DNA of 32,246 bases from an uncultured Candidatus Saccharibacteria bacterium (GTDB lineage Bacteria > Patescibacteriota > Minisyncoccia > JACPKW01 > UBA11713): assembly GCA_964366035.1 (NCBI GenBank), contig CAYISH010000002.1:1-32246 (forward strand), written 5' to 3'. Positions within the stretch are counted from its first letter, which is position 1; every line of letters begins with the position of its first letter. Positions 1,618 to 32,246 of this stretch are shown here, one piece after another. The position numbers and the translations under genes were made by a program. The notes beneath the pieces were generated by a model. The model saw only the letters and a program-made list of their open reading frames with translations, did not search any database and was not told where the DNA came from.

Positions 1618-2148
1618 CTAGCCCGTCATAGCAATGGGTATGTAACATCGGAACCCTCGCATGTTCTCGTAGAGCGCGCGAGACGAGTACCCCCACGGGA
1701 TAGCGTCACAGGCTTTGTCGATGGGTACATCCTTCGAAGAGAGCAAGCACTCAACTGGAGATAGTTTTCTTTTGTGTTCCTTCCGGCTCCTCTTCCCGTC
1801 TACGGAAAGGATTTTATCCTTTGTCTTCTCTCTCCTGTACGGCCCCCAGATAATACTGCTCTTCACTTTGACTTCATCCGGGTATTTCCATCTTTCCTCC
1901 GCAGGAATATGGCGGTAGCGGACATGATGGTCGGAACGATAGACGAGCGTGAAGAAACCTACCTCTGTGACTTCATCCGGGTATTTCCATCTTTCCTCCG
2001 CAGGAATATGGCGGTAGCGGACATGATGGTCGGAACGATAGACGAGCGTACAAATACCGGCTTCCACTTCCGCCGGATATTTTTCCCGTTCCCAAGAAGG
2101 GCAATGGGCATACCTGACACTTTGGCTTTCACAATGTATGCATTCCAT
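1618..2148 (-). CDS. Unknown Cys-containing protein with three 33-aa tandem repeats and a basic C-terminal tail
   Basis: The ORF track gives 1618..2166. I prefer the ATG at 2148 (MECIHCESQ...) because AGGAGG at 2160-2155 lies 6 nt upstream. The repeat unit is VRYxHxPxxERxKYPxEV...TLVYRSDHH, three times. It lies 61 nt downstream of the HD gene on the same strand. No family recognised. Confidence 0.6.
   Translation of the reverse strand: MECIHCESQSVRYAHCPSWEREKYPAEVEAGICTLVYRSDHHVRYRHIPAEERWKYPDEVTEVGFFTLVYRSDHHVRYRHIPAEERWKYPDEVKVKSSIIWGPYRREKTKDKILSVDGKRSRKEHKRKLSPVECLLSSKDVPIDKACDAIPWGYSSRALYENMRGFRCYIPIAMTG
1869..2049. repeat. 99-bp-period tandem duplication inside the 1618..2148 CDS
   Basis: The 82-nt block at 1869-1950 is repeated identically at 1968-2049 (compared base by base). 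The period is 99 bp, or 33 codons. A third diverged unit extends to about 2140. Confidence 0.95.
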
Positions 2149-2209
2149 GGATATCCTCCTTTGCATTTCTTACTCAGATGGTTCAAGGAACCAGTTATTC
2201 ACATATATT

Positions 2210-7733: not shown

Positions 7734-8508
7734 AGACCGCGCTGGCCTCGACCTGGGTTTTAAAAACTCCGAGCTCCGCCTCGGTCGCGGAATTTCGGGC
7801 GGCGAAAAAAGCGCGCGGCGGGTGGAAGACTTAAACCCCGTGCTTTTTCAAACTTACCCCGGCGATGAGCGAGTGGTATACCATGTGTGGCGGAACGTGC
7901 GGCGCGACCAAGACGCCCAAACGCTAGACCGCCTCAACATCCGCTACGACCTTACCGCCCTTTATCCCGGACCGATTGGCCGCGAACTTCCTAAAACATT
8001 CGGCCATTACCACGCGAAAAACTACCCCGAAGTCTACGAGGTGCTGTCAGGAACTGCCTGGTGGATTATTCAAAAACCGAAACGAAACGACCCGCGCACC
8101 ATCGAGGAGGCATATCTTATTGAAGCGCGCGAAGGGGAAAAAGCAGTGATGCCCCCGGGGTTTGGGCACATCAGCATTAATCCAGGCCCCTCTCCCCTCA
8201 TTCTCTCCAACTGGATCGGCGACTTCTTTCAGTACGACTACGACACGTACGAAAACTTGCACGGGGCATGCTATTACGTTCTTGAATCCAGCGATAAAAA
8301 AACGGTGGAGTTTGAAAAAAATTCGTTTTATTATATAATACCTGAACTGACGAAACTTCGCCCCAAAGAGCCCCCCCGCCTTAATATCATGAAGAAAAAG
8401 CCCCTCTACAATCTTATCGAACACCCCGAGCGTTTGGATTTTCTCTCACATCCGAGAGAGTGGCGGGACATTCTCACTATCGAAAATTGTTTTAAGAAAA
8501 ATAAATAA
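7705..8508 (+). CDS. pgiA: Cupin-type glucose-6-phosphate isomerase (archaeal-type cPGI)
   Basis: 267 aa. It has the cPGI cupin motifs TFGHYHAKNYPEVYEVLSG and MPPGFGHISINPG, and an N-terminal GGEKSARRVEDL that resembles the Pyrococcus cPGI GAKKSVRRLSDM. It overlaps the upstream gene by 29 nt. Confidence 0.75.
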   Translation: MSGTFSKNLKDRAGLDLGFKNSELRLGRGISGGEKSARRVEDLNPVLFQTYPGDERVVYHVWRNVRRDQDAQTLDRLNIRYDLTALYPGPIGRELPKTFGHYHAKNYPEVYEVLSGTAWWIIQKPKRNDPRTIEEAYLIEAREGEKAVMPPGFGHISINPGPSPLILSNWIGDFFQYDYDTYENLHGACYYVLESSDKKTVEFEKNSFYYIIPELTKLRPKEPPRLNIMKKKPLYNLIEHPERLDFLSHPREWRDILTIENCFKKNK

Positions 8509-8612: not shown

Positions 8613-10397
8613 ATGAAAACTTCATTAAAAGAGCGGACTCGAAGAGTCCCTCAAAGAAAAGGACCTGTCCGGCACGCTCCAGAGCGGGCCGGGGAGGCCA
8701 GCCTGCCTATTAGAACAGGCGCTCCCGCAGGAGCAAAAACCCTGCGCTTTATTCCTCTGGGCGGATGCGGCGAGGTAACGCGCTCCTGTTACGTATACGA
8801 GTATGGGGACGATATCGTCATTATCGACATGGGCCTCCAATTTCCGGAGGAAAACATGCCGGGAATAGATTATTTGATCCCCAACATCTCGTATCTTGCC
8901 GCAAAAAAGCGCAATATCCGCGGGGTCATTATCACCCACGGGCACCTCGACCACATTGGCGCCATCCCCCATCTTTTGGAACCTTTGGGCTCGCCCGTTC
9001 TCTATACTACCGCCCTTACCCGAGGCATGATCCTCCGGCGCCAGGAAGACTTTAAGCACACCGCTAAGCCAAAGGTGGAGCTGATCAACGAGAACTCAAA
9101 ACTGAAGTTGGGTAAATTCGAAGTCGAGTTTTTCCATGTAAATCACAACATCCCTGATTGCGTTGGCGTGGTACTTAAAACGCCGGGAGGCAGCGTGGTG
9201 CATACGGGAGACTGGAAATTCGACCACACCCCAGTAAACGAAAAACCGGCCGACATCAATCGGTTTAAGGAATTGGGAGCCGCAGGCGTAACGCTCTTGG
9301 TTTCCGACTCCACCGGCTCTCAATCGCCTGGCCGTACTATTTCGGAAAGTGAAATCCAGAAAAATTTGGAAGAGATTTTCAAAGCGGCGAGCGGGCGCAT
9401 TATCAGCGCCACCTTTGCTTCTTTGCTAACCCGCATCCAGCAACTCATCTGGCTTTCGGAAAAATATGGCCGGAAGGTGCTCGTGGAAGGCTACTCAATG
9501 CGCCAAAACGTGATCGTGGCGCAAGAGTTGGGTTATCTGAAAGTGCAAAAGGGTACGTTCATAAGCCACGAGGAGCTTGCGAACCTCCCGGACAACCGCC
9601 TCACTATCGTGTGCACAGGGGCGCAAGGCGAAGACCATGCCGTACTGATGCGGATTGCAAATGGAGAGCACCGGCACCTGCAATTAAAACCCGCCGATTC
9701 CATTATCTTCTCTTCGTCAGTAGTGCCAGGCAACGAAGCAACCGTGCAAAGATTAAAAGACGTTCTCTATAAAAAAGCGGGGAAAATTTATCATTCTGAA
9801 TCTATGGATATCCATGCTTCCGGGCACGCGAAAGGCGAAGACTTGAAAGATCTTATCCGCCTGCTCTCTCCCCGCTACTTCATCCCCATGCACGGCAACT
9901 ATTTCATGCTCCGCCTCCACACGGAACTGGCGCTTGAAGCGGGCGTAGATGCGAAGCACGCCTGCATCGCCGAAGACGGCGAGGTGGTAGAAATTACGCC
10001 TGAAACAATACGAAAAACGAAGGAAAAAGTTCCTATAGACCACGTGATGGTGGACGGACTCGGGGTAGGCGACGTAAAAGAAGTGGTGCTCCGCGACCGG
10101 CAAATGCTCTCGGAAGACGGTATTTTCGTGGTCATTGCGGTGGTAAACGGCGAATCCGGAAAAATAAAAGGCTCGCCCGACATTATTTCGCGGGGGTTCG
10201 TGTATCTGAAAGAGTCGCGCGACCTTCTGGCCCAAGCCCGCGCGCTCGTGCGGCACGTAATCGAAAGCGGCACCGGCAATATGCACCCCATCAATTGGAC
10301 GTTTCTCCGCGACGAACTTCGTGAAGAACTCGGCAAATTCCTCTTCCGCAAAACCGCCCGGCGGCCCATGGTGCTGCCGGTGATCATTGAGGTATAA
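8613..10397 (+). CDS. rnj: Ribonuclease J (beta-CASP metallo-beta-lactamase RNase) with a 45-aa basic N-terminal extension
   Basis: 594 aa, with RFIPLGGCGEVTRSC, the HxHxDH motif ITHGHLDHIG, and HASGHA. The ATG at 8613 is the only canonical in-frame start upstream of the conserved IPLGG block. Confidence 0.9.
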   Translation: MKTSLKERTRRVPQRKGPVRHAPERAGEASLPIRTGAPAGAKTLRFIPLGGCGEVTRSCYVYEYGDDIVIIDMGLQFPEENMPGIDYLIPNISYLAAKKRNIRGVIITHGHLDHIGAIPHLLEPLGSPVLYTTALTRGMILRRQEDFKHTAKPKVELINENSKLKLGKFEVEFFHVNHNIPDCVGVVLKTPGGSVVHTGDWKFDHTPVNEKPADINRFKELGAAGVTLLVSDSTGSQSPGRTISESEIQKNLEEIFKAASGRIISATFASLLTRIQQLIWLSEKYGRKVLVEGYSMRQNVIVAQELGYLKVQKGTFISHEELANLPDNRLTIVCTGAQGEDHAVLMRIANGEHRHLQLKPADSIIFSSSVVPGNEATVQRLKDVLYKKAGKIYHSESMDIHASGHAKGEDLKDLIRLLSPRYFIPMHGNYFMLRLHTELALEAGVDAKHACIAEDGEVVEITPETIRKTKEKVPIDHVMVDGLGVGDVKEVVLRDRQMLSEDGIFVVIAVVNGESGKIKGSPDIISRGFVYLKESRDLLAQARALVRHVIESGTGNMHPINWTFLRDELREELGKFLFRKTARRPMVLPVIIEV

Positions 10398-21147: not shown

Positions 21148-22317
21148 TTATTGAGGATTCGCCAAGAGAGCATTCATCTGTTCCTGCAAGAGACGCAACT
21201 GCTCTTGGAGCCCTACCACGCTCTGCCCATTTGCGTTAGTGCCTACTCCGAGCCCGCTTCCTTGAAGTTCATTGAGCTTAGCTCTGGTTTGAGGCCCGAC
21301 TCTTCCTACTTGGGCAATACCATACTTCTTCTGGAAACGAATGACTGCCTGCTTGGTTAATGCTCCAAAGTATCCGCTTACTTGCCCTTCAGGATACACT
21401 TCTAGGTCCTTGGCAAGAACCTCCTGAAGCTTCTTTACTTCGTCGCCTCGATCGCCCATTTTAAGGTCTTTCGTAAAGGTGAACGACACGGGGGGAGATT
21501 CCGGAGGTGGAGGAGGCGGAGTGGCCCCGAGATTCACAGTAAGAAGTTCATTAAGTTTTGCGAGCGTCTGCGGCCCTACTTTTCCAGCTTGGGAAATGCC
21601 ATGCTTTTTCTGAAAGTTCTTTACCGCCTGCTTGGTTAATGCTCCAAAGTATCCGCTTACTTGCCCTTGGGGATATACTTCCGGGTCACGAGCGAGAAAC
21701 TCCTGTAATTTACTTACTTCGTCACCTCGATCGCCCACCTGCATCGGTTTAGTGAAAGAAGAAACAGAAAAAGGCGTAGTTGCAGGCGGAGGAGGCGGAG
21801 TAACCTGTCCTGCGGGTGGCGGTGGCGGTGGCGTTACTGATGCCGGAGGTGGCGGTGGTGGTGGAGTAATTATTCCACCGCCTCCTCCCCCTCCACCTGT
21901 AGAACCGCTCCCGCCGCCTCCTCCAGAAGAAGGCAGACAGGAACTTCCTATCGAAATTGTTACCTCTTGAGTGCCTGTGGTAGTTTTCGACAATGTTAAC
22001 GAGTTCCCAGAGCTATCACAGTTTGATGCCGTCACAAATGTACCGGGGCTGGCGGTAAGTGTTCGAGAAGCGCTCGAAGTAGCGGTAAGAGCCGAGCCGC
22101 TTGACATAATAAAGCTGAAGTCGGTGCCAGTTACAGTAAATGAATCAACTGTCCCAGTCTTGGTGATGAAGAACGTGATTGCCGGATCGGCAATGGAAAT
22201 CTGGTTTCCGTTCTGAAAGGTCAAATCGTTCGCCGCAAGCGCCACGAGAGGCCCGCCCGCTACCCCGATGAGCGAAGAGAGAAGCCATACTCCCGTTGTG
22301 AGGATATTTTTTCTCAT
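21148..22317 (-). CDS. Secreted protein with Gly/Pro-rich linkers and two PG_binding_1 domains
   Basis: 389 aa with a signal peptide (ILTTGVWLLSSLIGVAGGPLVALA), then GGGGGSGSTGGGGGGG and PPPPPPP tracts. The domain GDRGDEVxKLQEFLAxDxEVYPxGQVSGYFGALTKQAV..FQKKxGI occurs twice. At the DNA level, a 43-nt identical block occurs at 21347-21389 and 21626-21668. Confidence 0.8.
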   Translation of the reverse strand: MRKNILTTGVWLLSSLIGVAGGPLVALAANDLTFQNGNQISIADPAITFFITKTGTVDSFTVTGTDFSFIMSSGSALTATSSASRTLTASPGTFVTASNCDSSGNSLTLSKTTTGTQEVTISIGSSCLPSSGGGGGSGSTGGGGGGGGIITPPPPPPPASVTPPPPPPAGQVTPPPPPATTPFSVSSFTKPMQVGDRGDEVSKLQEFLARDPEVYPQGQVSGYFGALTKQAVKNFQKKHGISQAGKVGPQTLAKLNELLTVNLGATPPPPPPESPPVSFTFTKDLKMGDRGDEVKKLQEVLAKDLEVYPEGQVSGYFGALTKQAVIRFQKKYGIAQVGRVGPQTRAKLNELQGSGLGVGTNANGQSVVGLQEQLRLLQEQMNALLANPQ

Positions 22318-26923: not shown

Positions 26924-27574
26924 TTAGTATTTCGCAAAATAGTTAATCGAGGCGCTGGCACGCAGAGAATCAATCCATGCTCTGGCCTCTTGGTTTAACT
27001 TCCCCGACTTCAGCTGATTCTTAATTTCTTCTTTTATTTGAACCTCCTGCCCCTTCGGGATAGCCACTTTATTGTCCTTAATATATTTCGCCGCTTCTTC
27101 GTCGCTTATCTGCGTTTTGTCGTAGAACATTTTCTCTACTCTCAGTTGGGTCGCCACTTGTTTTTTTAATTTCACTCTCGTCGTGCCTTCCGCCGCAAGC
27201 GCTTGCTCGAACGTAGTCCCCCGGGCGGTAACTTGTTCTTCGATAGTTTTTATTTTGGCATCCACTTCCTCATCCGGCGCTATAATTCCATTTTTATCCA
27301 ATGCGCCTTCTATTAGTTTCTCGGTAATAAGCGCGTCGAGCACCTGACTTCCAGAAGAACTTTCAAGCCTTTTGATGACGGCGAGGCGGCTTATGGGGCT
27401 TCCGTTTACCGTAGCCGCGATAAACAAGCCTTTGTACACAAAACCAAGGGCGGCTATAATAACCAGGACCGCCACAATAATCGCGGTTTTCGCGCTTACT
27501 ACAATCCCTTTTTTCCCATGCGGCGACTCATATCCCCGCGCCGTCGATGCTGTTTCTGTTTTATTTTCGTCCAC
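26924..27574 (-). CDS. SurA-N/PrsA-like periplasmic chaperone domain protein, membrane-anchored, with no PPIase domain seen
   Basis: 216 aa with a GTG start and a TM (AIIVAVLVIIAALGFVY). The line VNGSPISRLAVIKRLE...ALDALITEKLIE is typical of SurA_N-type chaperones. Confidence 0.6.
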   Translation of the reverse strand: MDENKTETASTARGYESPHGKKGIVVSAKTAIIVAVLVIIAALGFVYKGLFIAATVNGSPISRLAVIKRLESSSGSQVLDALITEKLIEGALDKNGIIAPDEEVDAKIKTIEEQVTARGTTFEQALAAEGTTRVKLKKQVATQLRVEKMFYDKTQISDEEAAKYIKDNKVAIPKGQEVQIKEEIKNQLKSGKLNQEARAWIDSLRASASINYFAKY

Positions 27575-27605
27575 AAAATTTAATTAAAAGATAATGCTTG
27601 CAGTA

Positions 27606-27636
27606 AGGAAAAATCGCGGCTGTAAGCCCAGACCGC
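27606..27636 (-). terminator. Possible terminator after obg and the small ORF
   Basis: On the minus strand, a GCGGTCTG/CAGCCGC stem (7 bp plus a bulge) is followed by GATTTTTCC. Confidence 0.4.
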
Positions 27637-27654
27637 CCCATTTTTTCTCCTGCG

Positions 27655-27783
27655 TTAAATCCTTTTGCTTTTCTTTTTACGAACGGGGTTCATTTTTGCA
27701 TTTTTCGCTTTTCCTTCAAGCCGCGGCGGCCGCGTAAGATGAAGCTCTTTTTCTTTTGACACCTTGGGGACTTGCTTTCTCAT
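27655..27783 (-). CDS. Hypothetical 42-aa lysine-rich peptide (below the ORF-track cutoff)
   Basis: ATG at 27783 and TAA at 27657-27655. It reads MRKQVPKVSKEKELHLTRPPRLEGKAKNAKMNPVRKKKSKRI. It sits 33 nt downstream of obg with no SD. It may be non-coding. Confidence 0.2.
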   Translation of the reverse strand: MRKQVPKVSKEKELHLTRPPRLEGKAKNAKMNPVRKKKSKRI

Positions 27784-27816
27784 ACAATCTATTACACCAC
27801 AAAACGTTCAAATATC

Positions 27817-28779
27817 CTACTTCGCGGAATTTATTTTATTCAAAATCTTTTTCACTTTTTCCAGACTTGCCCAGTCGTGAATGGAAATCGGCAATGTATT
27901 TTTGTTGCACTTTTTGAGCGCGGCAATTTTCTTCTTTATCTCTGCCGCCGATTGAGTATCGCTTTTCGACAAAAATATGTATTCGGTTTTTTTGGCGAGT
28001 TCCTGACTGAATGCCGCGAGCTCGTTTTTGATGGTATGGTAATCTTTTACGGGGTTCCCTGATTCCGCGGAAATAAGATGGAACAAAATTTTCGTCCGCT
28101 CGATGTGGCGGAGAAATTTTGTGCCAAGCCCCTTCCCCGTGGAGGCGCCTTCAATAAGGCCAGGGATATCGGCCAAAATAAGGTTAAAGTACGAGCCCAG
28201 ATTCGGCTCTAGGGTGGTGAAAGGATAGTTTGCCACGCGGCTTTTTGCTTCAGTCAGTTCGTTTAACAGGCTTGACTTGCCCGCATTGGGCAAACCGATC
28301 AGGCCCACGTCTGCGATGAGCTTCAATTCGAGCCGTAGCGTAAAGCGCTCGCCTGGAAGGCCTTTTTGAAACCGCTTCGGGGTGGTAAGCGTCGGTGAGC
28401 GGAAAAGAAAATTTCCCTTCCCGCCCATGCCGCCTTTGGCAACCAACACGCGCTCGCCGATTTTCAGCACTTCCTCGACCGTACCCGTCTCGATTTTTCG
28501 AATGACCGTCCCCACCGGAACTTTTAAGACAAGTTCCCCTCCGTCGGCGCCATCGCGAAATTGCTCTTTTCCATTCTCGCCGTCTAGGGCATGAATGTCT
28601 TTTTTGAATCTAAACTGGCTAAGCGCATTTAGATCGGAGACGCCTTCAAAATACACGCTCCCTCCCCTGCCGCCCGATCCGCCAGTAGGCCCCAAGCTCA
28701 TCAAGTTTTTATTGAACGTAACCGCGCCCCGTCCGCCGTTCCCCGCCCGCGCCGCAATGGTGATATCGTCAATTAACAT
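27817..28779 (-). CDS. obg: GTPase Obg/CgtA (short form, 320 aa)
   Basis: Obg fold at the N-terminus (MLIDDITIAARAGNGGRGAVTF...GGSGGRGGSVYF). G-domain motifs GLPNAGKSSLLN, DIPGLIEGAS and SKSD. Confidence 0.92.
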   Translation of the reverse strand: MLIDDITIAARAGNGGRGAVTFNKNLMSLGPTGGSGGRGGSVYFEGVSDLNALSQFRFKKDIHALDGENGKEQFRDGADGGELVLKVPVGTVIRKIETGTVEEVLKIGERVLVAKGGMGGKGNFLFRSPTLTTPKRFQKGLPGERFTLRLELKLIADVGLIGLPNAGKSSLLNELTEAKSRVANYPFTTLEPNLGSYFNLILADIPGLIEGASTGKGLGTKFLRHIERTKILFHLISAESGNPVKDYHTIKNELAAFSQELAKKTEYIFLSKSDTQSAAEIKKKIAALKKCNKNTLPISIHDWASLEKVKKILNKINSAK

Positions 28780-28799
28780 GTTTTGTTCATTCTCCGCCT

Positions 28800-29360
28800 T
28801 TAAGCCCCCGGTTTTATACTTCGCCCAAGTTCCTGAATTTTCAAAATGGCGACAGAGCTCGCGCCATGAGTAATCTCGCTATTCATCACCATTTTTACCG
28901 CCTTCGCGAATGTAATTTTAATTACTCGAATTTGTTCCGTGCCTTCCTGCTCAGATTTTCCATGCGCTAAGTCTTCGGCCAAATACATATGATTCGGCGA
29001 AACAAGAATAGTGGTAAATGGATCAATAATTCCTAGGTATGTCCACTTTTTTGCAACAAGGCCAGTCTCTTCCTTCAATTCTCTCTTTGCGGCCCGCAGC
29101 TTGCTCTCTTTGCCATCAATCCCGCCGCTGATTGCTTCCGTAGTTATCCTTTCAACCGCGTAATGATATTCTCTCGTCAAATAGATGTTTCCTTGGGCAT
29201 CCATCGGAATAACCGAGACGCCCCCTTTTTGCTCTATCACTCCAAAAATCCCAGGCTTTTTATCCGGCCTTATCACCTTATCTTCCCTCACTTTTATCCA
29301 GGGATTTTGATATACGGTCTTGGAATCAGTGACAATCCAAGGTCCTTTGCGTTTTTTCAT
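28800..29360 (-). CDS. NUDIX hydrolase (ADP-ribose pyrophosphatase-like)
   Basis: 186 aa. Nudix box GGIDGKESKLRAAKRELKEETGL. It lies 20 nt upstream of obg. TACAAT (29375-29370) is 9 nt before the ATG. Confidence 0.85.
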   Translation of the reverse strand: MKKRKGPWIVTDSKTVYQNPWIKVREDKVIRPDKKPGIFGVIEQKGGVSVIPMDAQGNIYLTREYHYAVERITTEAISGGIDGKESKLRAAKRELKEETGLVAKKWTYLGIIDPFTTILVSPNHMYLAEDLAHGKSEQEGTEQIRVIKITFAKAVKMVMNSEITHGASSVAILKIQELGRSIKPGA

Positions 29361-29527
29361 GGTTTTGCAATTGTATCGCTTTGTAGAATAAAATCTACTG
29401 GGCCGCGTTCATGCACGGCAACTTAGGTAAAGCTTCATCATACTGATTTGAAAAGCCAATTATTTTTCCGTAATCATGGAGCCAGATCATTAACTTCACC
29501 AAATTTCTGTCGGCATTCTCGTAGATG

Positions 29528-29581
29528 TTACACAATGAAGGAATTGTCGGCGCACTGGAGGATGTAGACAGTGTATGCCAT
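29528..29581 (-). pseudogene. Orphan 5' fragment of the GIY-YIG gene (17 codons)
   Basis: Inside repeat copy 1, ATG at 29581 reads [15 protein letters not shown], identical to the intact gene. It then leaves the repeat and reads IV-stop. Confidence 0.8.
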
Positions 29582-29670
29582 AAAATTAATAAGCGCAGAT
29601 GTAGTCCCTCGCTTCACTCGGGATGATGAAAATCTAATCCGCCCACGGCGGAAAGATTTTCTATCAGCTG
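29537..29670. repeat. 134-bp direct repeat, copy 1
   Basis: Identical at all 134 positions to 30829-30962 (compared base by base). Confidence 0.97.
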
Positions 29671-29802
29671 GGGGCATCGGACGAAGTTAGAACCGTTTTG
29701 CTGGGTAGGAAGTCGCACTTTTCAACATCGCTTTGAGTTTATAGATTTTATCCTACCGCAAAAAGCACTATTTTTAGCAATTTTAAGATATGCACACCCC
29801 CA

Positions 29803-29830
29803 TTGACTTTTCACACTCACCAGCTATATT
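29803..29830 (+). promoter_or_regulatory. Orphan promoter TTGACT-16-TATATT
   Basis: -35 is at 29803-29808 and -10 at 29825-29830. A hairpin plus T-run follows about 15 nt downstream, ahead of the NYN gene's own -10. Confidence 0.45.
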
Positions 29831-29843
29831 GAATATATACACG

Positions 29844-29886
29844 CCCCATGCCAGCCGAAAGGTCCGCTGGGGTTTTTGGTTTTTTT
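29844..29886 (+). terminator. Imperfect hairpin plus T5GGT7 run (intrinsic-terminator-like) just upstream of the NYN promoter
   Basis: Outer stem CCCCA / TGGGG and inner stem GCC-GAAA-GGT, then TTTTTGGTTTTTTT (29873-29886). Confidence 0.5.
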
Positions 29887-29905
29887 ACTGGTAAAATAGA
29901 GATAA

Positions 29906-30508
29906 ATGACAAAGGTGCTTTTTATTGACGGCGAAAACTTCAAAGGCAAAATCCGGTCTGTTTTCAAAGATGCGGGCAAAGGGAAACCCGTATGGCACGA
30001 GTACAACTTCAATGGCCTTCTGGATAAGGTGCTCGGGGGTGTTGAAATAGGCCAGAGAGTATTCTATTTCGCGCGCATCAATGAACACGAGGAGAGCAAA
30101 GAGAAATCAAAACAGCTTATTGAAGAACAGCGCTTGCTTAAAACCCATCTTGAGGGACAAGGATTTGAGGTGGTGTTGAGCGGCAGGGTCCGTGGGCAGA
30201 TGGAAAATGGCGAAGGCGGTAAGGGGAGAAAGGTATTGGTTTTCAAAGAAAAGGGCGTTGATGTGCGTATCGCCGTGGATATGGTAAGCATCGCCTGCGA
30301 TAAGAAGGCGGATGAGATAATTCTCGGCAGTTCCGACTCGGACTTGCAACCGGCAATCAAAGAAGTGCGTGCGCGCGGAGTTTTTTGCGTATACCTCGGA
30401 TTTGAAACACAACCGAATAAGGGAATTTCCTACACGACCAACAGGACTATCATTATCCGCAACTCGGAGATTTTTGAGTTTGAAAAAGTGAAAGAGGGGC
30501 TATTTTAG
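29906..30508 (+). CDS. NYN-domain (LabA/DUF88-like) putative ribonuclease
   Basis: 200 aa. NYN/PIN-like acidic motifs VLFIDGENF, KGVDVRIAVDM and ILGSSDSDLQPAIKEVRARG. Extended -10 TGGTAAAAT (29889-29897) lies 8 nt before the ATG. Confidence 0.75.
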   Translation: MTKVLFIDGENFKGKIRSVFKDAGKGKPVWHEYNFNGLLDKVLGGVEIGQRVFYFARINEHEESKEKSKQLIEEQRLLKTHLEGQGFEVVLSGRVRGQMENGEGGKGRKVLVFKEKGVDVRIAVDMVSIACDKKADEIILGSSDSDLQPAIKEVRARGVFCVYLGFETQPNKGISYTTNRTIIIRNSEIFEFEKVKEGLF

Positions 30509-30589
30509 AGGTGTGCTCTAATCATACACTAAATAACAGAAAAGTATCAGTGAATTATTGACAGCCCGATCAGTTAAACTGAGAAGCAG

Positions 30590-30617
30590 GATAACTGGGA
30601 TAACTGATAACGATAAC
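30590..30617. repeat. Cluster of four GATAAC hexamers
   Basis: GATAAC occurs at 30590, 30599, 30606 and 30612 (caGGATAACtgGGATAACtGATAACGATAACag). The cluster sits between the convergent NYN and GIY-YIG genes and ends 4 nt from the GIY-YIG stop. Confidence 0.9.
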
Positions 30618-30621
30618 AGAG

Positions 30622-30873
30622 TCAGGAGCGCTTTTCTGTAAGCTTAAGTTTCTTCTCCCGTTTCCATGATTTTATTTCCGCTTCGCGGGCGCGGGCTGCT
30701 TTTAAGGTCGAGTGGCTTTCGGAATGCGCAAGTGCAACAGGCCTTCGAATTTTTGTATAGTGCGCTCCGGATTTTGAGTTATTATGCCGATGCATCCTCT
30801 TCTCGAGATTGTTCGTACAGCCAACGTAGAAGGAATTGTCGGCGCACTGGAGGATGTAGACAGTGTATGCCAT
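30622..30873 (-). CDS. Small GIY-YIG nuclease-family protein (YhbQ/URI-domain-only type, 83 aa)
   Basis: The ORF track's 30622..31008 runs through the tRNA-Gln gene. The internal ATG 30873 gives [31 protein letters not shown]...AREAEIKSWKR, a complete GIY-YIG core. Confidence 0.8.
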   Translation of the reverse strand: MAYTVYILQCADNSFYVGCTNNLEKRMHRHNNSKSGAHYTKIRRPVALAHSESHSTLKAARAREAEIKSWKREKKLKLTEKRS

Positions 30874-30962
30874 AAAATTAATAAGCGCAGATGTAGTCCC
30901 TCGCTTCACTCGGGATGATGAAAATCTAATCCGCCCACGGCGGAAAGATTTTCTATCAGCTG
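30829..30962. repeat. 134-bp direct repeat, copy 2
   Basis: It covers the last 3 nt of tRNA-Gln, the 86-nt spacer (with hairpin TCCGCC-GTG-GGCGGA plus TTAGATTTT) and the first 45 nt of the GIY-YIG CDS. Confidence 0.97.
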
Positions 30963-31030
30963 CCGGGCTTGGATTCGAACCAAGGTGACGACTTTCAGAG
31001 AGTCGCATCCTACCACTAGATGACCCGGCA
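30960..31030 (-). tRNA. tRNA-Gln(CUG)
   Basis: Minus strand: TGCCGGG TC ATCT AGTGGTA GGAT G CGACT CTCTGAA AGTCG TCAC CTTGG TTCGAAT CCAAG CCCGGCA G. It has a U1-A72 pair and G73 as in bacterial tRNA-Gln, with anticodon CTG. 71 nt, no encoded CCA. Confidence 0.88.
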
Positions 31031-31064
31031 ATTTATCACTGCCTATGACGGCAATAACATAAAA

Positions 31065-31093
31065 ATAGTATCCTAGATTGCGGGTATTTTCAA
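31065..31093 (-). promoter_or_regulatory. Putative tRNA-Gln promoter TTGAAA-17-TACTAT
   Basis: On the minus strand, -35 is at 31093-31088 and -10 at 31070-31065, about 35 nt upstream of the tRNA 5' end. Confidence 0.5.
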
Positions 31094-31100
31094 TGAAGAT

Positions 31101-31130
31101 GCCCTGGCTTGCGTAGCCAGGGCTTTCTCT
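31101..31130. terminator. Hairpin between the 134-aa gene and tRNA-Gln
   Basis: 9-bp stem GCCCTGGCT / AGCCAGGGC. The T-run (TTTCTCT) is on the plus strand only, so the orientation is ambiguous. Confidence 0.45.
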
Positions 31131-31146
31131 AGAACAATTGCCTACC

Positions 31147-31551
31147 TTAGGGCGGCAGATCTAAAGCCTTGCAAAAAGCTTCGCGGGTTATTTGAGTTAA
31201 ATAACTCAGCAATATCTCGCCGACTTTGTTTCTCCAGTCTATCTCCACAATCACTTCAAGGCCCTCATACCTGCCTCTCTGCTGCCGAGGAGATATTGTT
31301 ATCGCTTTAAACCGCGCATTGTCATGCAGACGAAACCCCTTTTCCTTCAATGCCTCATCCATTTTCTTCTCCAAGCTTGGCTCGGCATAAGAATTTTTTA
31401 TGTCGAGTCCTGGATGGGCAAAGTTCTTTGAGAGTCTCGCGTGTATGCAATACTCCCCAAGCCAATCCCATTGGTCCTCCTTGCCCTGCTGCTTTTTGGG
31501 CCTCTCGTTCTTCTTAACCGAGAACTCTGTTAATCCTTCTGCCGCTTTCAT
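31147..31551 (-). CDS. Hypothetical protein, 134 aa, no recognisable family
   Basis: A complete ORF with a strong SD (AGGAGG at 31564-31559, 7 nt before the ATG). Charged N-terminus, no TM or signal peptide. Confidence 0.6.
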   Translation of the reverse strand: MKAAEGLTEFSVKKNERPKKQQGKEDQWDWLGEYCIHARLSKNFAHPGLDIKNSYAEPSLEKKMDEALKEKGFRLHDNARFKAITISPRQQRGRYEGLEVIVEIDWRNKVGEILLSYLTQITREAFCKALDLPP

Positions 31552-31626
31552 GCCTTGTCCTCCTTTTGTTAATGCATCTTAACTCTTGATACCATCCGTT
31601 CTGCGAGTGGTCAATAATTAGTTATG

Positions 31627-32246
31627 CTATCTCCTTAATACTGCCTCGAGCTCTTTAAGAGAGTTCAGCAATGTTTGGAGCACCGAGGCCAAAGCGCTTT
31701 GGCCAATTTTTCTCTCCGGTGATCCCACGGAGCTTCCGACGACGCTAATGCTGAATGTGCTGTCACTGGAATCCGAAGACCCGTTCGGCAGAACCTCGCT
31801 GACCTCCGGGCAAAGACTTACATAGCACCCTCTCGCCAAAAAGATTCTTACCTTATAATTACTTCCCGCATCCGGCACATAGGAAGGAATTGTCCAACTG
31901 TATGAAGATTGATTAATCGGGACACTCCACAGATACCATCCCGTATCACCCACTCGATCAAGATTAATATTCCAAGTAAAATTCTGGTCGCCGGAAAATC
32001 CCGCCGTGAGGGGATTTGCCCATTGAATCTGATGGGTGCTCCCTTTCGCCCATTGCTCGCCGCCGTTAGGGGTAATAACTCTTAACGTTTCGTGGGAAGC
32101 CGGAGGTGGTGGCGGGAGTGCTGGGGTAGACGAGGCGGTGGGAGGAGGAGGTGGCAATAATCCGCCAGCTGGCGGAGGGGGAGGTGGTGGGGTGGTCGTT
32201 CCTGATGGCGAGGCAGGTGTGGCAGGAATTGCTGGAACCGTGGTAG
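31627..32246 (-). CDS. C-terminal part of a secreted polyproline-linked protein; the gene start is beyond the right edge
   Basis: The reading frame stays open from 32157 to the window end (...TTVPAIPATPASPSGTTTPPPPPPPAGGLLPPPPPTASST...). A beta-rich domain follows (ITPNGGEQWAKGSTHQIQW...YKVRIFLARG). Confidence 0.65.
   Translation of the reverse strand, partial: TTVPAIPATPASPSGTTTPPPPPPPAGGLLPPPPPTASSTPALPPPPPASHETLRVITPNGGEQWAKGSTHQIQWANPLTAGFSGDQNFTWNINLDRVGDTGWYLWSVPINQSSYSWTIPSYVPDAGSNYKVRIFLARGCYVSLCPEVSEVLPNGSSDSSDSTFSISVVGSSVGSPERKIGQSALASVLQTLLNSLKELEAVLRR

Follow-up and report, generated by a model that had tools for sequence, protein, structure and literature searches.

The repeat and the genes around it

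We analysed a window of 32,246 nt, the complete NCBI contig CAYISH010000002.1 of an uncultured Candidatus Saccharibacteria bacterium, and concentrated on the locus at which a transfer RNA gene for glutamine, tRNA-Gln(CTG), is followed on the minus strand by a small gene for a GIY-YIG-domain protein, with a convergent gene for an NYN-domain protein beyond it (Table 1). Two copies of a 134-nt sequence (R) lie at this locus in direct orientation, one at the junction of tRNA-Gln with the GIY-YIG gene and the other beyond the NYN gene, and they enclose 1158 nt of unique DNA (U). The copies are identical at 134 of 134 positions and a mismatch follows at once at each end; relaxed extension lengthens the match to 145 nt at 97% identity. 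A scan of the 32-kb window found R to be the sole perfect repeat of at least 28 nt, the remaining long repeats (1866-2058, 10384/19222 and 21264-21737) being diverged copies of 78-95% identity.

R is composed of the last 3 nt of tRNA-Gln (CAG), the 86-nt spacer and the first 45 nt (15 codons) of the GIY-YIG gene. Its ends ignore gene boundaries, one lying 3 nt inside the tRNA and the other at codon 15-16 of the open reading frame (ORF), and apart from the 3 nt of tRNA it is made up of spacer and GIY-YIG coding sequence, 131 nt together. An earlier description made from the DNA letters (the sequence-only reading) had reported the perfect repeat, the make-up of the right copy, an orphan GIY-YIG start ending in Ile-Val-stop at the left copy, the two nuclease domains and a GATAAC cluster between the copies. 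All of these were recovered here, the make-up of the right copy by ARAGORN, Rfam and the ORFs, and the NYN and GIY-YIG domains by hidden Markov model (HMM) searches. It had also noted that no recombinase lies between the copies, and this holds more widely, as domain searches found no integrase, transposase, recombinase or replication gene in the whole 32-kb contig, whose genes are ordinary chromosomal ones; NYN and GIY-YIG are the only ORFs with domains between the copies.

Table 1. Features of the tRNA-Gln locus, in window coordinates, and the contigs that cover it (R1-R3, replicate assemblies of well H51).
Feature	Position	Strand	Evidence or content
Right repeat copy (R), canonical junction	30829-30962	minus	spacer architecture common to L088, L097, L124 and L094
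Left repeat copy (R), truncated second junction	29537-29670	minus	134/134 identical to right copy; spanned by contig L002
tRNA-Gln(CTG)	30959/30960-31030	minus	ARAGORN; Rfam 56.3 bits
Promoter-like site of tRNA-Gln	31065-31093	minus	promoter scan
GIY-YIG gene, 83 aa	30622-30873	minus	PF01541 E=2.6e-17; starts 86 nt downstream of tRNA-Gln
Long post-tRNA hairpin (UGAUAGAAAAUCU..AGAUUUUCAUCA)	30916-30958; second copy 29624-29666	minus	RNA fold, terminator scan
GA hairpin CCC-GAG-UGAAG-CGA-GGG, single-unit form	30898-30914; second copy 29606-29622	minus	motif comparison
Orphan GIY-YIG start: 15 codons, then I, V, stop	29528-29581	minus	ORF translation
Box resembling tRNA-Gln 3' end (CCAGCAAAACGGTTCTAACTTCGTCCGATGCCCCCAG)	29668-29704	minus	alignment
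NYN gene, 200 aa	29906-30508	plus	PF01936 E=3.8e-14
Promoter TTGACT-16-TATATT (29803-29830) and 39/40-nt hairpin with U tail (29837-29876)	29803-29876	plus	
Short ORF with WLHDYGK, starting at repeat boundary	29395-29535	minus	possible HD-gene remnant
GATAAC x4 micro-tandem repeat	30590-30617	plus	between convergent NYN and GIY-YIG gene ends
Contig L002, R1	27236-30247		left flank, entire left copy and unique part
Contig L004, R1	30236-31841		unique part, entire right copy and right flank
Contig L003, R3	30079-32115		unique part, entire right copy and right flank
Contig L001, R2	29616-30883		unique 1158 nt with exactly 55 nt of repeat per end (k=55 graph edge)
Contig L161, well H32	28529-29591		stops exactly 55 nt into left copy

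Assembly support and the single-repeat contig

The DNA comes from Hainich groundwater (well H51, 0.1-µm fraction), which is represented by independent per-replicate metaSPAdes assemblies (R1, R2 and R3). Support for both junctions, on which the sequence-only reading had made its proposal depend, is given by L002 for the left copy and by L003 and L004 for the right copy, and L001, L002, L003, L004 and L161 are all 99.6-99.9% identical to the window. Because independent contigs cross the left or the right copy, the direct-repeat arrangement is not an artefact of the deposited contig.

The same reading had envisaged an empty site with a single repeat, and a contig of this form does exist, in R2 only. 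This contig, L160 (9869 nt, coverage 5.18), consists of the right flank, one repeat copy and the left flank, with exactly 1292 nt missing. Eleven positions spread across its two flanks differ from the window; where L002, L003 and L004 cover them, those contigs carry the window alleles, and L160 has a single-nucleotide polymorphism (SNP) haplotype of its own on both flanks. In the R2 assembly the coverage of the unique part (L001) is 6.2 vs 5.18 for the flanks (L160), in effect equal, and the unique part is therefore present about once per genome. The single-repeat contig came only from the assembly whose graph has the unique part as an unbroken loop; in R1 and R3 a coverage gap breaks the unique part, there is no loop, and the assembler gave flank-R-U and U-R-flank. 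That L160 arose only with an intact loop suggests a loop-resolution shortcut of the assembler. Judged from coverage and assembler behaviour L160 is ambiguous and may be such a shortcut, and we give it roughly one chance in four of being a real variant. A form without the 1292 nt would lose NYN, which is present in every relative, and this counts against a real L160.

The tRNA-Gln/GIY-YIG unit

PF01541 covers residues 3-76 of the 83-aa protein, which also matches PDB 1ywl (E=2.1e-11, residues 4-76) and 1zg2 (E=6.7e-10, residues 3-79), both of them UPF0213 structures, and we assign it on these matches as a stand-alone UPF0213-type GIY-YIG protein consisting of the catalytic domain only. A -10-like TATTAA stands directly upstream of its ATG, so that, as read from the sequence, its mRNA probably lacks a leader or carries a very short one. 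The search for homologues returned 3402, many of them in Patescibacteria. An exact look-up of the 83-aa protein in assemblies gave no record, because the gene callers had skipped the ORF.

Close homologues, 64-74% identical, were compared in 41 metagenome loci (L085-L125). A comparison of tRNA-Gln loci in relatives, which the sequence-only reading had proposed, shows here a marked linkage: in 17 of the 41 loci the GIY-YIG gene lies downstream of a co-oriented tRNA-Gln (CTG or TTG) at a distance of 56-233 nt, and in one locus tRNA-Asn is in this place. More distant homologues (38-52%) had no tRNA-Gln, and the linkage is clade-specific. The same order with an unrelated spacer is seen in Liptonbacteria (L022:10487-10889), where tRNA-Gln(CTG) is followed after a gap of about 82 nt (92 nt to the domain match) by GIY-YIG, with NYN 5.5 kb off; three GIY-YIG genes lie within 3 kb at this locus. 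By these comparisons tRNA-Gln followed by GIY-YIG is a conserved arrangement in Patescibacteria, and the right copy of R is therefore the normal junction. Other tRNAs (Asn, Asp, Ser) occasionally stand upstream of GIY-YIG homologues.

The spacer between the two genes has a recognizable architecture of its own. The window-type spacer, with the long post-tRNA hairpin and then CCC-GAG-UGAAG-CGA-GGG, also occurs in L088, L097, L124 and L094, and the post-tRNA hairpin looks like a terminator. In a more general form, N4-GAG(GAG)-loop-(CGA)CGA-N4', the GA hairpin stands before the ATG at about 30 of 40 loci. The closing stem of its two-unit form covaries (CCCU/AGGG, CACU/AGUG, CAUU/AAUG, CUCU/AGAG), and it is fully paired in 20 of the 26 pattern matches in GIY-YIG loci vs 1 of 16 in NYN loci. 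An inverted copy of the motif often adjoins the tRNA-Gln 3' end (L108, L120, L090), and a solo copy follows tRNA-Gln at L019:6708-6735, a locus without GIY-YIG. When 15 tRNA-Gln/GIY-YIG loci were searched with Rfam at the gathering threshold, tRNAs alone were returned and no known RNA family was found in the spacers. A hammerhead was considered for the GA motif by eye and rejected, as its core would need a GAAA after stem II and there is none. The spacer motifs being shared, R coincides exactly with the 5' boundary region of the tRNA-Gln/GIY-YIG unit, with terminator-like hairpin, GA hairpin, -10-like box and 15 codons, and the right copy is the ordinary junction of a conserved unit made of tRNA-Gln, post-tRNA hairpin, GA hairpin, -10 box and UPF0213 GIY-YIG.

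This boundary region is visibly prone to local duplication in relatives. In the spacer nearest to that of the window (L088:771-917), a 42-nt internal direct repeat of the post-tRNA hairpin flanks an expanded GA-hairpin region, and arrays of two or three spacer modules stand between tRNA-Gln and GIY-YIG in L100, L102, L112 and L113. The tRNA-Gln profile located additional copies, full or partial, no more than about 400 nt away in L089, L096, L100, L102, L112 and L113; about five loci beyond the 17 have a tRNA-Gln at such a distance or as a fragment. In L101, L110 and L118 it also found a second copy, partial (profile positions about 18-73), in the interval from the true tRNA to the gene.

The module arrays CUUCGUCGC..GCUCCUCAG..GCCUUCGGC..CUGAGGAG..CGACGAAG are inverted-repeat units resembling miniature inverted-repeat transposable elements (MITEs). 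The partial tRNA-Gln-like copies of L101, L110, L118 and L096 sit between the true tRNA-Gln and the GIY-YIG spacer, and in L096, as also in L110 and L118, the copy begins with a conserved GGCGGGGTGAAGTAGGA, apparently without a normal D arm.

The left copy, its box and a possible HD-gene remnant

On its upstream side (minus strand) the left copy adjoins a box, CCAGCAAAACGGTTCTAACTTCGTCCGATGCCCCCAG, at the exact place that tRNA-Gln has in the right copy. The box shares GGTTCnAA..TCCnAnnCCnnCAG(C) with the tRNA-Gln 3' end, and the two have CAG(C) and a 10/14 match in common. The sequence-only reading had regarded about 29668-29704 as a tRNA-like relic. A tRNA was rejected, as there was no ARAGORN call, an Rfam scan at E<=10 covering 29380-31100 had tRNA-Gln as its only match, and nhmmer with a tRNA-Gln profile gave no match to the box at E<=10; the element itself stands as a recurrent, conserved box. 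It is present (AAACAGGTTCTAACNTCGTCC..CCCNCAGC) twice in L121, once directly ahead of a spacer and a full GIY-YIG gene, this box-unit lying about 1.7 kb downstream of tRNA-Gln(TTG), and it also occurs in L119 and in L014, where it lies 338 nt ahead of NYN and, as in the window, on the other strand. A diverged variant precedes the unit of L094. Since box, spacer and GIY-YIG stand together in L121 and in the L094-like variant, the left copy has a layout in which the unit is already known to occur.

On the downstream side the left copy stops between codons 15 and 16 and enters a short ORF with the motif WLHDYGK, next to which are NUDIX and Obg genes. Past codon 15 the left copy has no GIY-YIG-like sequence in any frame. 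The WLHDYGK ORF gave sub-threshold HD matches only (Cas3_HD E=0.054, HD E=0.12) and had no homologue among the loci compared; going by the motif, it may be what remains of an HD-domain gene interrupted at the junction.

The NYN gene and its hairpin

The NYN domain scores above the Pfam threshold (53.9 bits vs a gathering cutoff of 24.2 for PF01936). The protein has no sequence match to any solved structure, and its TIGR00288 score is below the cutoff of that model. Relatives with 52-78% identity are found in 80 Patescibacteria species genomes, including Paceibacterota and Kaiser-, Sung-, Adler-, Wolfe-, Nomura-, Lipton-, Doudna-, Shapiro- and Buchananbacteria. Among the 80 loci the neighbours of NYN vary, and no neighbour gene of the window is consistently linked to it; in L033 Obg is near NYN, but an unrelated 373-aa gene stands in between. 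The sequence-only reading had suggested a survey of how often NYN and small GIY-YIG genes occur together, and the answer is unfavourable to a pair: GIY-YIG adjoins NYN in 1/80 genome loci (L015), and three others have it at a distance of up to 6 kb, which rules out NYN and GIY-YIG as a conserved pair.

A promoter-hairpin unit precedes NYN in all 78 loci that have upstream sequence, with a promoter, ACACGCCCCAGCCAGCCGNNAGGUCCGCUGGGG, a U run and then a TGnTAnAAT box near the NYN ATG. The sequence-only reading had called this an orphan promoter-terminator unit; the promoter and the hairpin with its T-run are indeed present, and the unit is conserved upstream of NYN in 78/78 loci. The hairpin, 39 nt long, reads ACACGCCCCAGC-CAGCCGNNAGGUCC-GCUGGGG and is followed by a U tail. 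Over 45 distinct sequences it is 99.8% paired, with five pairs changed on both sides, and its observed score was reached by 0 of 500 shuffles. A covariance model of the hairpin has exactly one match per NYN locus (78/78), and in 425 kb of other Patescibacteria-rich DNA it matched nothing beyond the window's own hairpin at 29837-29876; Rfam 15 has no family matching it. On this comparative evidence the NYN-linked hairpin is a candidate new small RNA or leader.

As a separate observation, the -35 of the hairpin promoter is closely preceded in 37 of 79 loci (L005-L084) by a DnaA-box-like 9-mer (TTATCCACA or its complement, with no more than 1 mismatch), which stands some 40-60 nt ahead of the hairpin and has a background of 0.04 per 130 nt; the window has ATATGCACA at 29788-29796, which is DnaA-box-like with 2 mismatches.

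Because it has its own conserved hairpin unit and occurs in 80 genomes with unrelated neighbours, NYN is a conserved, essentially single-copy chromosomal gene that behaves like a housekeeping gene, not like cargo, and simply sits between the repeat copies. The possibly mobile two-nuclease cassette of the sequence-only reading does not survive these results: NYN is conserved in 80 genomes, GIY-YIG is adjacent in 1/80, a recombinase is lacking and there are no viral relatives. In viral contigs no close relatives of either NYN or GIY-YIG were found, so that a phage origin has no support.

Origin of the repeat

We consider that the perfect repeat is a recent local segmental duplication of the GIY-YIG start that follows tRNA-Gln, and not the edge of a mobile cassette, with a probability of about 0.55. 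The copies are perfect and direct, their ends run across gene boundaries and there is short homology at a junction, as in a recent segmental duplication. The sequence-only reading had left open an integration scar or a recent segmental duplication; the duplication fits, whereas the integration scar does not, with 3 nt of tRNA in the repeat and no recombinase. As to direction and mechanism, we infer that a recent local event would have put a second copy of the tRNA-proximal 134 nt beside the resident box. The upstream junction may have been guided by the short stretch of homology that links the box to the tRNA-Gln 3' end, and the downstream junction would be illegitimate, onto the possible HD-gene remnant. 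In one route, ectopic repair or a template switch guided by microhomology would have copied the 134 nt in a single step; in the other, a tandem duplication of the whole segment from R to the box would have been followed by an illegitimate deletion from codon 16 into the HD-like gene. The adjacent GIY-YIG nuclease may have made the break, as the phage nuclease SegB does, this by analogy only.

Several points weigh against a local duplication. The box is homologous to the tRNA 3' end over a short, imperfect stretch that lacks significance by HMM. L160 is also compatible with reversible excision and integration through the repeat. Coverage is low, 2-6x, in all source assemblies. The 83-aa GIY-YIG protein is without a DNA-binding domain and its role in cleavage is putative. 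Finally, as regards the ancestry of the left site, the search for close relatives gave none that shares the gene order: the nearest NYN is 78% identical and without synteny, and the 134-aa protein encoded next to tRNA-Gln (hyp134) is an orphan.

Among the other explanations, an error of assembly, in which R-U-R would be a strain-variant chimera or a mis-resolved repeat in the deposited contig, is highly improbable: coverage is low, haplotypes co-exist and the repeat is a branching node in the k=55 graphs, as seen from the ends of L001 and L161, but three separate replicate assemblies run from flank through the full 134-nt repeat into the unique middle at the 99.6-99.9% identity given above. 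Gene conversion, by which a tract from the right unit overwrote 134 nt of an old box-linked left unit whose remaining gene was already deleted, is unlikely. It would account for the sharp drop in identity, from 100% to background, at both ends, units of box, spacer and full GIY-YIG do exist (L121, L094) and several GIY-YIG genes per locus are common, as with the three of L022; however, since nothing GIY-YIG-like follows codon 15 at the left copy, a conversion tract would have had no homologous downstream anchor, and its upstream anchor would be a short, imperfect match only.

Reversible Campbell-type excision and integration would involve a 1292-bp circle (R + U) with box-spacer-GIY-YIG and NYN, recombining via the repeat at a chromosomal tRNA-Gln-R site, and corresponds to the mobile cassette of the sequence-only reading. 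Such a circle would carry an intact GIY-YIG unit of the known box type, and L160 is exactly flank-R-flank without the 1292 nt, with its own SNP haplotype on both flanks. We nevertheless hold this to be quite unlikely, for NYN is conserved and essentially single-copy in 80 genomes and the empty form would be entirely without it, neither a recombinase nor a replication gene was found in the contig, and no viral or other mobile relatives are known from our searches; moreover, the coverage of the unique part in R2 (6.2 vs 5.2 for the flanks) corresponds to about one copy per genome, and the flank-R-U and U-R-flank contigs of R1 and R3 suggest that L160 is a loop-resolution shortcut. A further reading, which goes beyond a local duplication and seems to us rather unlikely, is that tRNA-Gln 3' end (or the box mimicking it), hairpin modules and UPF0213 GIY-YIG together form a self-propagating, recombinase-free selfish element of Patescibacteria that targets the 3' flank of tRNA-Gln, the repeat being a fresh footprint of its copying. 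If this were true, a real single-repeat or excised form, should there be one, might also be a footprint of nuclease-driven copying.

Other observations in the window and in a relative

The GATAAC cluster consists of GGATAACTG x2 and GATAAC(T) x3 and stands directly after the GIY-YIG stop codon. The orphan protein hyp134 (31147-31551, minus strand) has a single matching cluster among 5.8 billion, made up of Hainich strain variants. At 32033-32115 the window differs from L003 by eight SNPs within 70 nt, and past 32115 the similarity ends inside a proline-rich 176-aa ORF; this is a strain-variable spot. The diverged repeat at 1866-1959 / 1965-2058 is a 94-nt direct repeat of 95% identity and represents an in-frame internal duplication of a 182-aa ORF (1618-2166, minus strand), for which there was no Pfam match. 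In the Liptonbacteria metagenome-assembled genome, L022:4942-10437 holds a haem-copper oxidase-like operon, assigned from translations only, with a 315-aa subunit II-like, a 653-aa subunit I-like, 193-aa and 106-aa subunits and a 302-aa prenyltransferase-like protein, and two extra small GIY-YIG genes (7994-8287, 8953-9210) lie between the genes of this operon.

Comparison with known systems and significance

The att repeats of tRNA-targeting integrative elements carry a segment of the tRNA 3' end. The present structure resembles such elements in that direct repeats adjoin a tRNA 3' end and in the existence of the ambiguous single-repeat contig L160; it differs in having no integrase, 3 nt of tRNA in the repeat and a conserved, housekeeping-type gene, NYN, between the copies. 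Since there is no integrase, the repeat is not of the att type and the bracketed gene is core, the structure is not a tRNA-targeting integrative element. Hairpin modules that are inverted and stand in arrays beside a small nuclease gene also recall MITEs and the repetitive extragenic palindromes (REPs) with their associated tyrosine transposases (RAYTs). In contrast to these repeat-associated selfish systems, the nuclease here is GIY-YIG and not an HUH/Y1 transposase, the modules are confined, in the loci compared, to the space between tRNA-Gln and GIY-YIG and are not dispersed, and mobility is putative.

The protein is nearest to the UPF0213/YhbQ family, with 83 aa vs chains of 96 and 107 aa in 1ywl (EF2693) and 1zg2 (BH0048) and near full-length alignment, and by these alignments it is a UPF0213 member. 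The literature searched contained no tRNA-Gln linkage and no GA-hairpin leader for this family, and in that on GIY-YIG or NYN in Patescibacteria (the candidate phyla radiation, CPR) no account was found of the linkage to tRNA-Gln or of either hairpin, the GA hairpin or that linked to NYN. Thus the linkage of tRNA-Gln with GIY-YIG and its GA hairpin, and the NYN-specific 39-nt hairpin, look new, whereas the repeat itself is an ordinary kind of rearrangement.

In phage T6, the tRNA-linked GIY-YIG homing endonuclease SegB drives the duplication of tRNA-Tyr and a truncated segB via microhomology (PMC13096335). The likeness to SegB and the other free-standing GIY-YIG nucleases of T-even phages is that a nuclease gene stands beside a tRNA, and that here a tRNA-proximal piece with a truncated GIY-YIG start has been duplicated. 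In contrast to the Seg/I-Tev type, the protein of the window is a bare 83-aa catalytic domain with no DNA-binding domain, and with the group I intron endonuclease model TIGR01453 (215 positions) it scores 22 bits vs a cutoff of 56; in contrast to SegB, the locus is chromosomal, in Patescibacteria and without viral relatives, and the duplication has left one partial copy, not an amplified array. The site bias of the GIY-YIG gene is strong, with tRNA-Gln upstream in 17/41 loci, and vertical inheritance of the tRNA-Gln/GIY-YIG pair may also play a part. By this comparison the locus does not seem to belong to the Seg/I-Tev homing endonucleases, yet it may work like SegB.

By itself the repeat is a small, recent rearrangement, and the wider interest of the locus comes from the unit and the hairpin RNA that were found by comparison. 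For the NYN-domain protein, a predicted RNase, the 39-nt hairpin RNA might serve as regulator, substrate or partner. One clade of the uncharacterised UPF0213 proteins is linked in Patescibacteria to the DNA that flanks tRNA-Gln on its 3' side, which leads to the hypothesis of a nuclease directed to the tRNA flank or of a homing-like element, and in this tRNA-Gln-linked GIY-YIG clade the tRNA-linked SegB of T-even phages would have its chromosomal counterpart.

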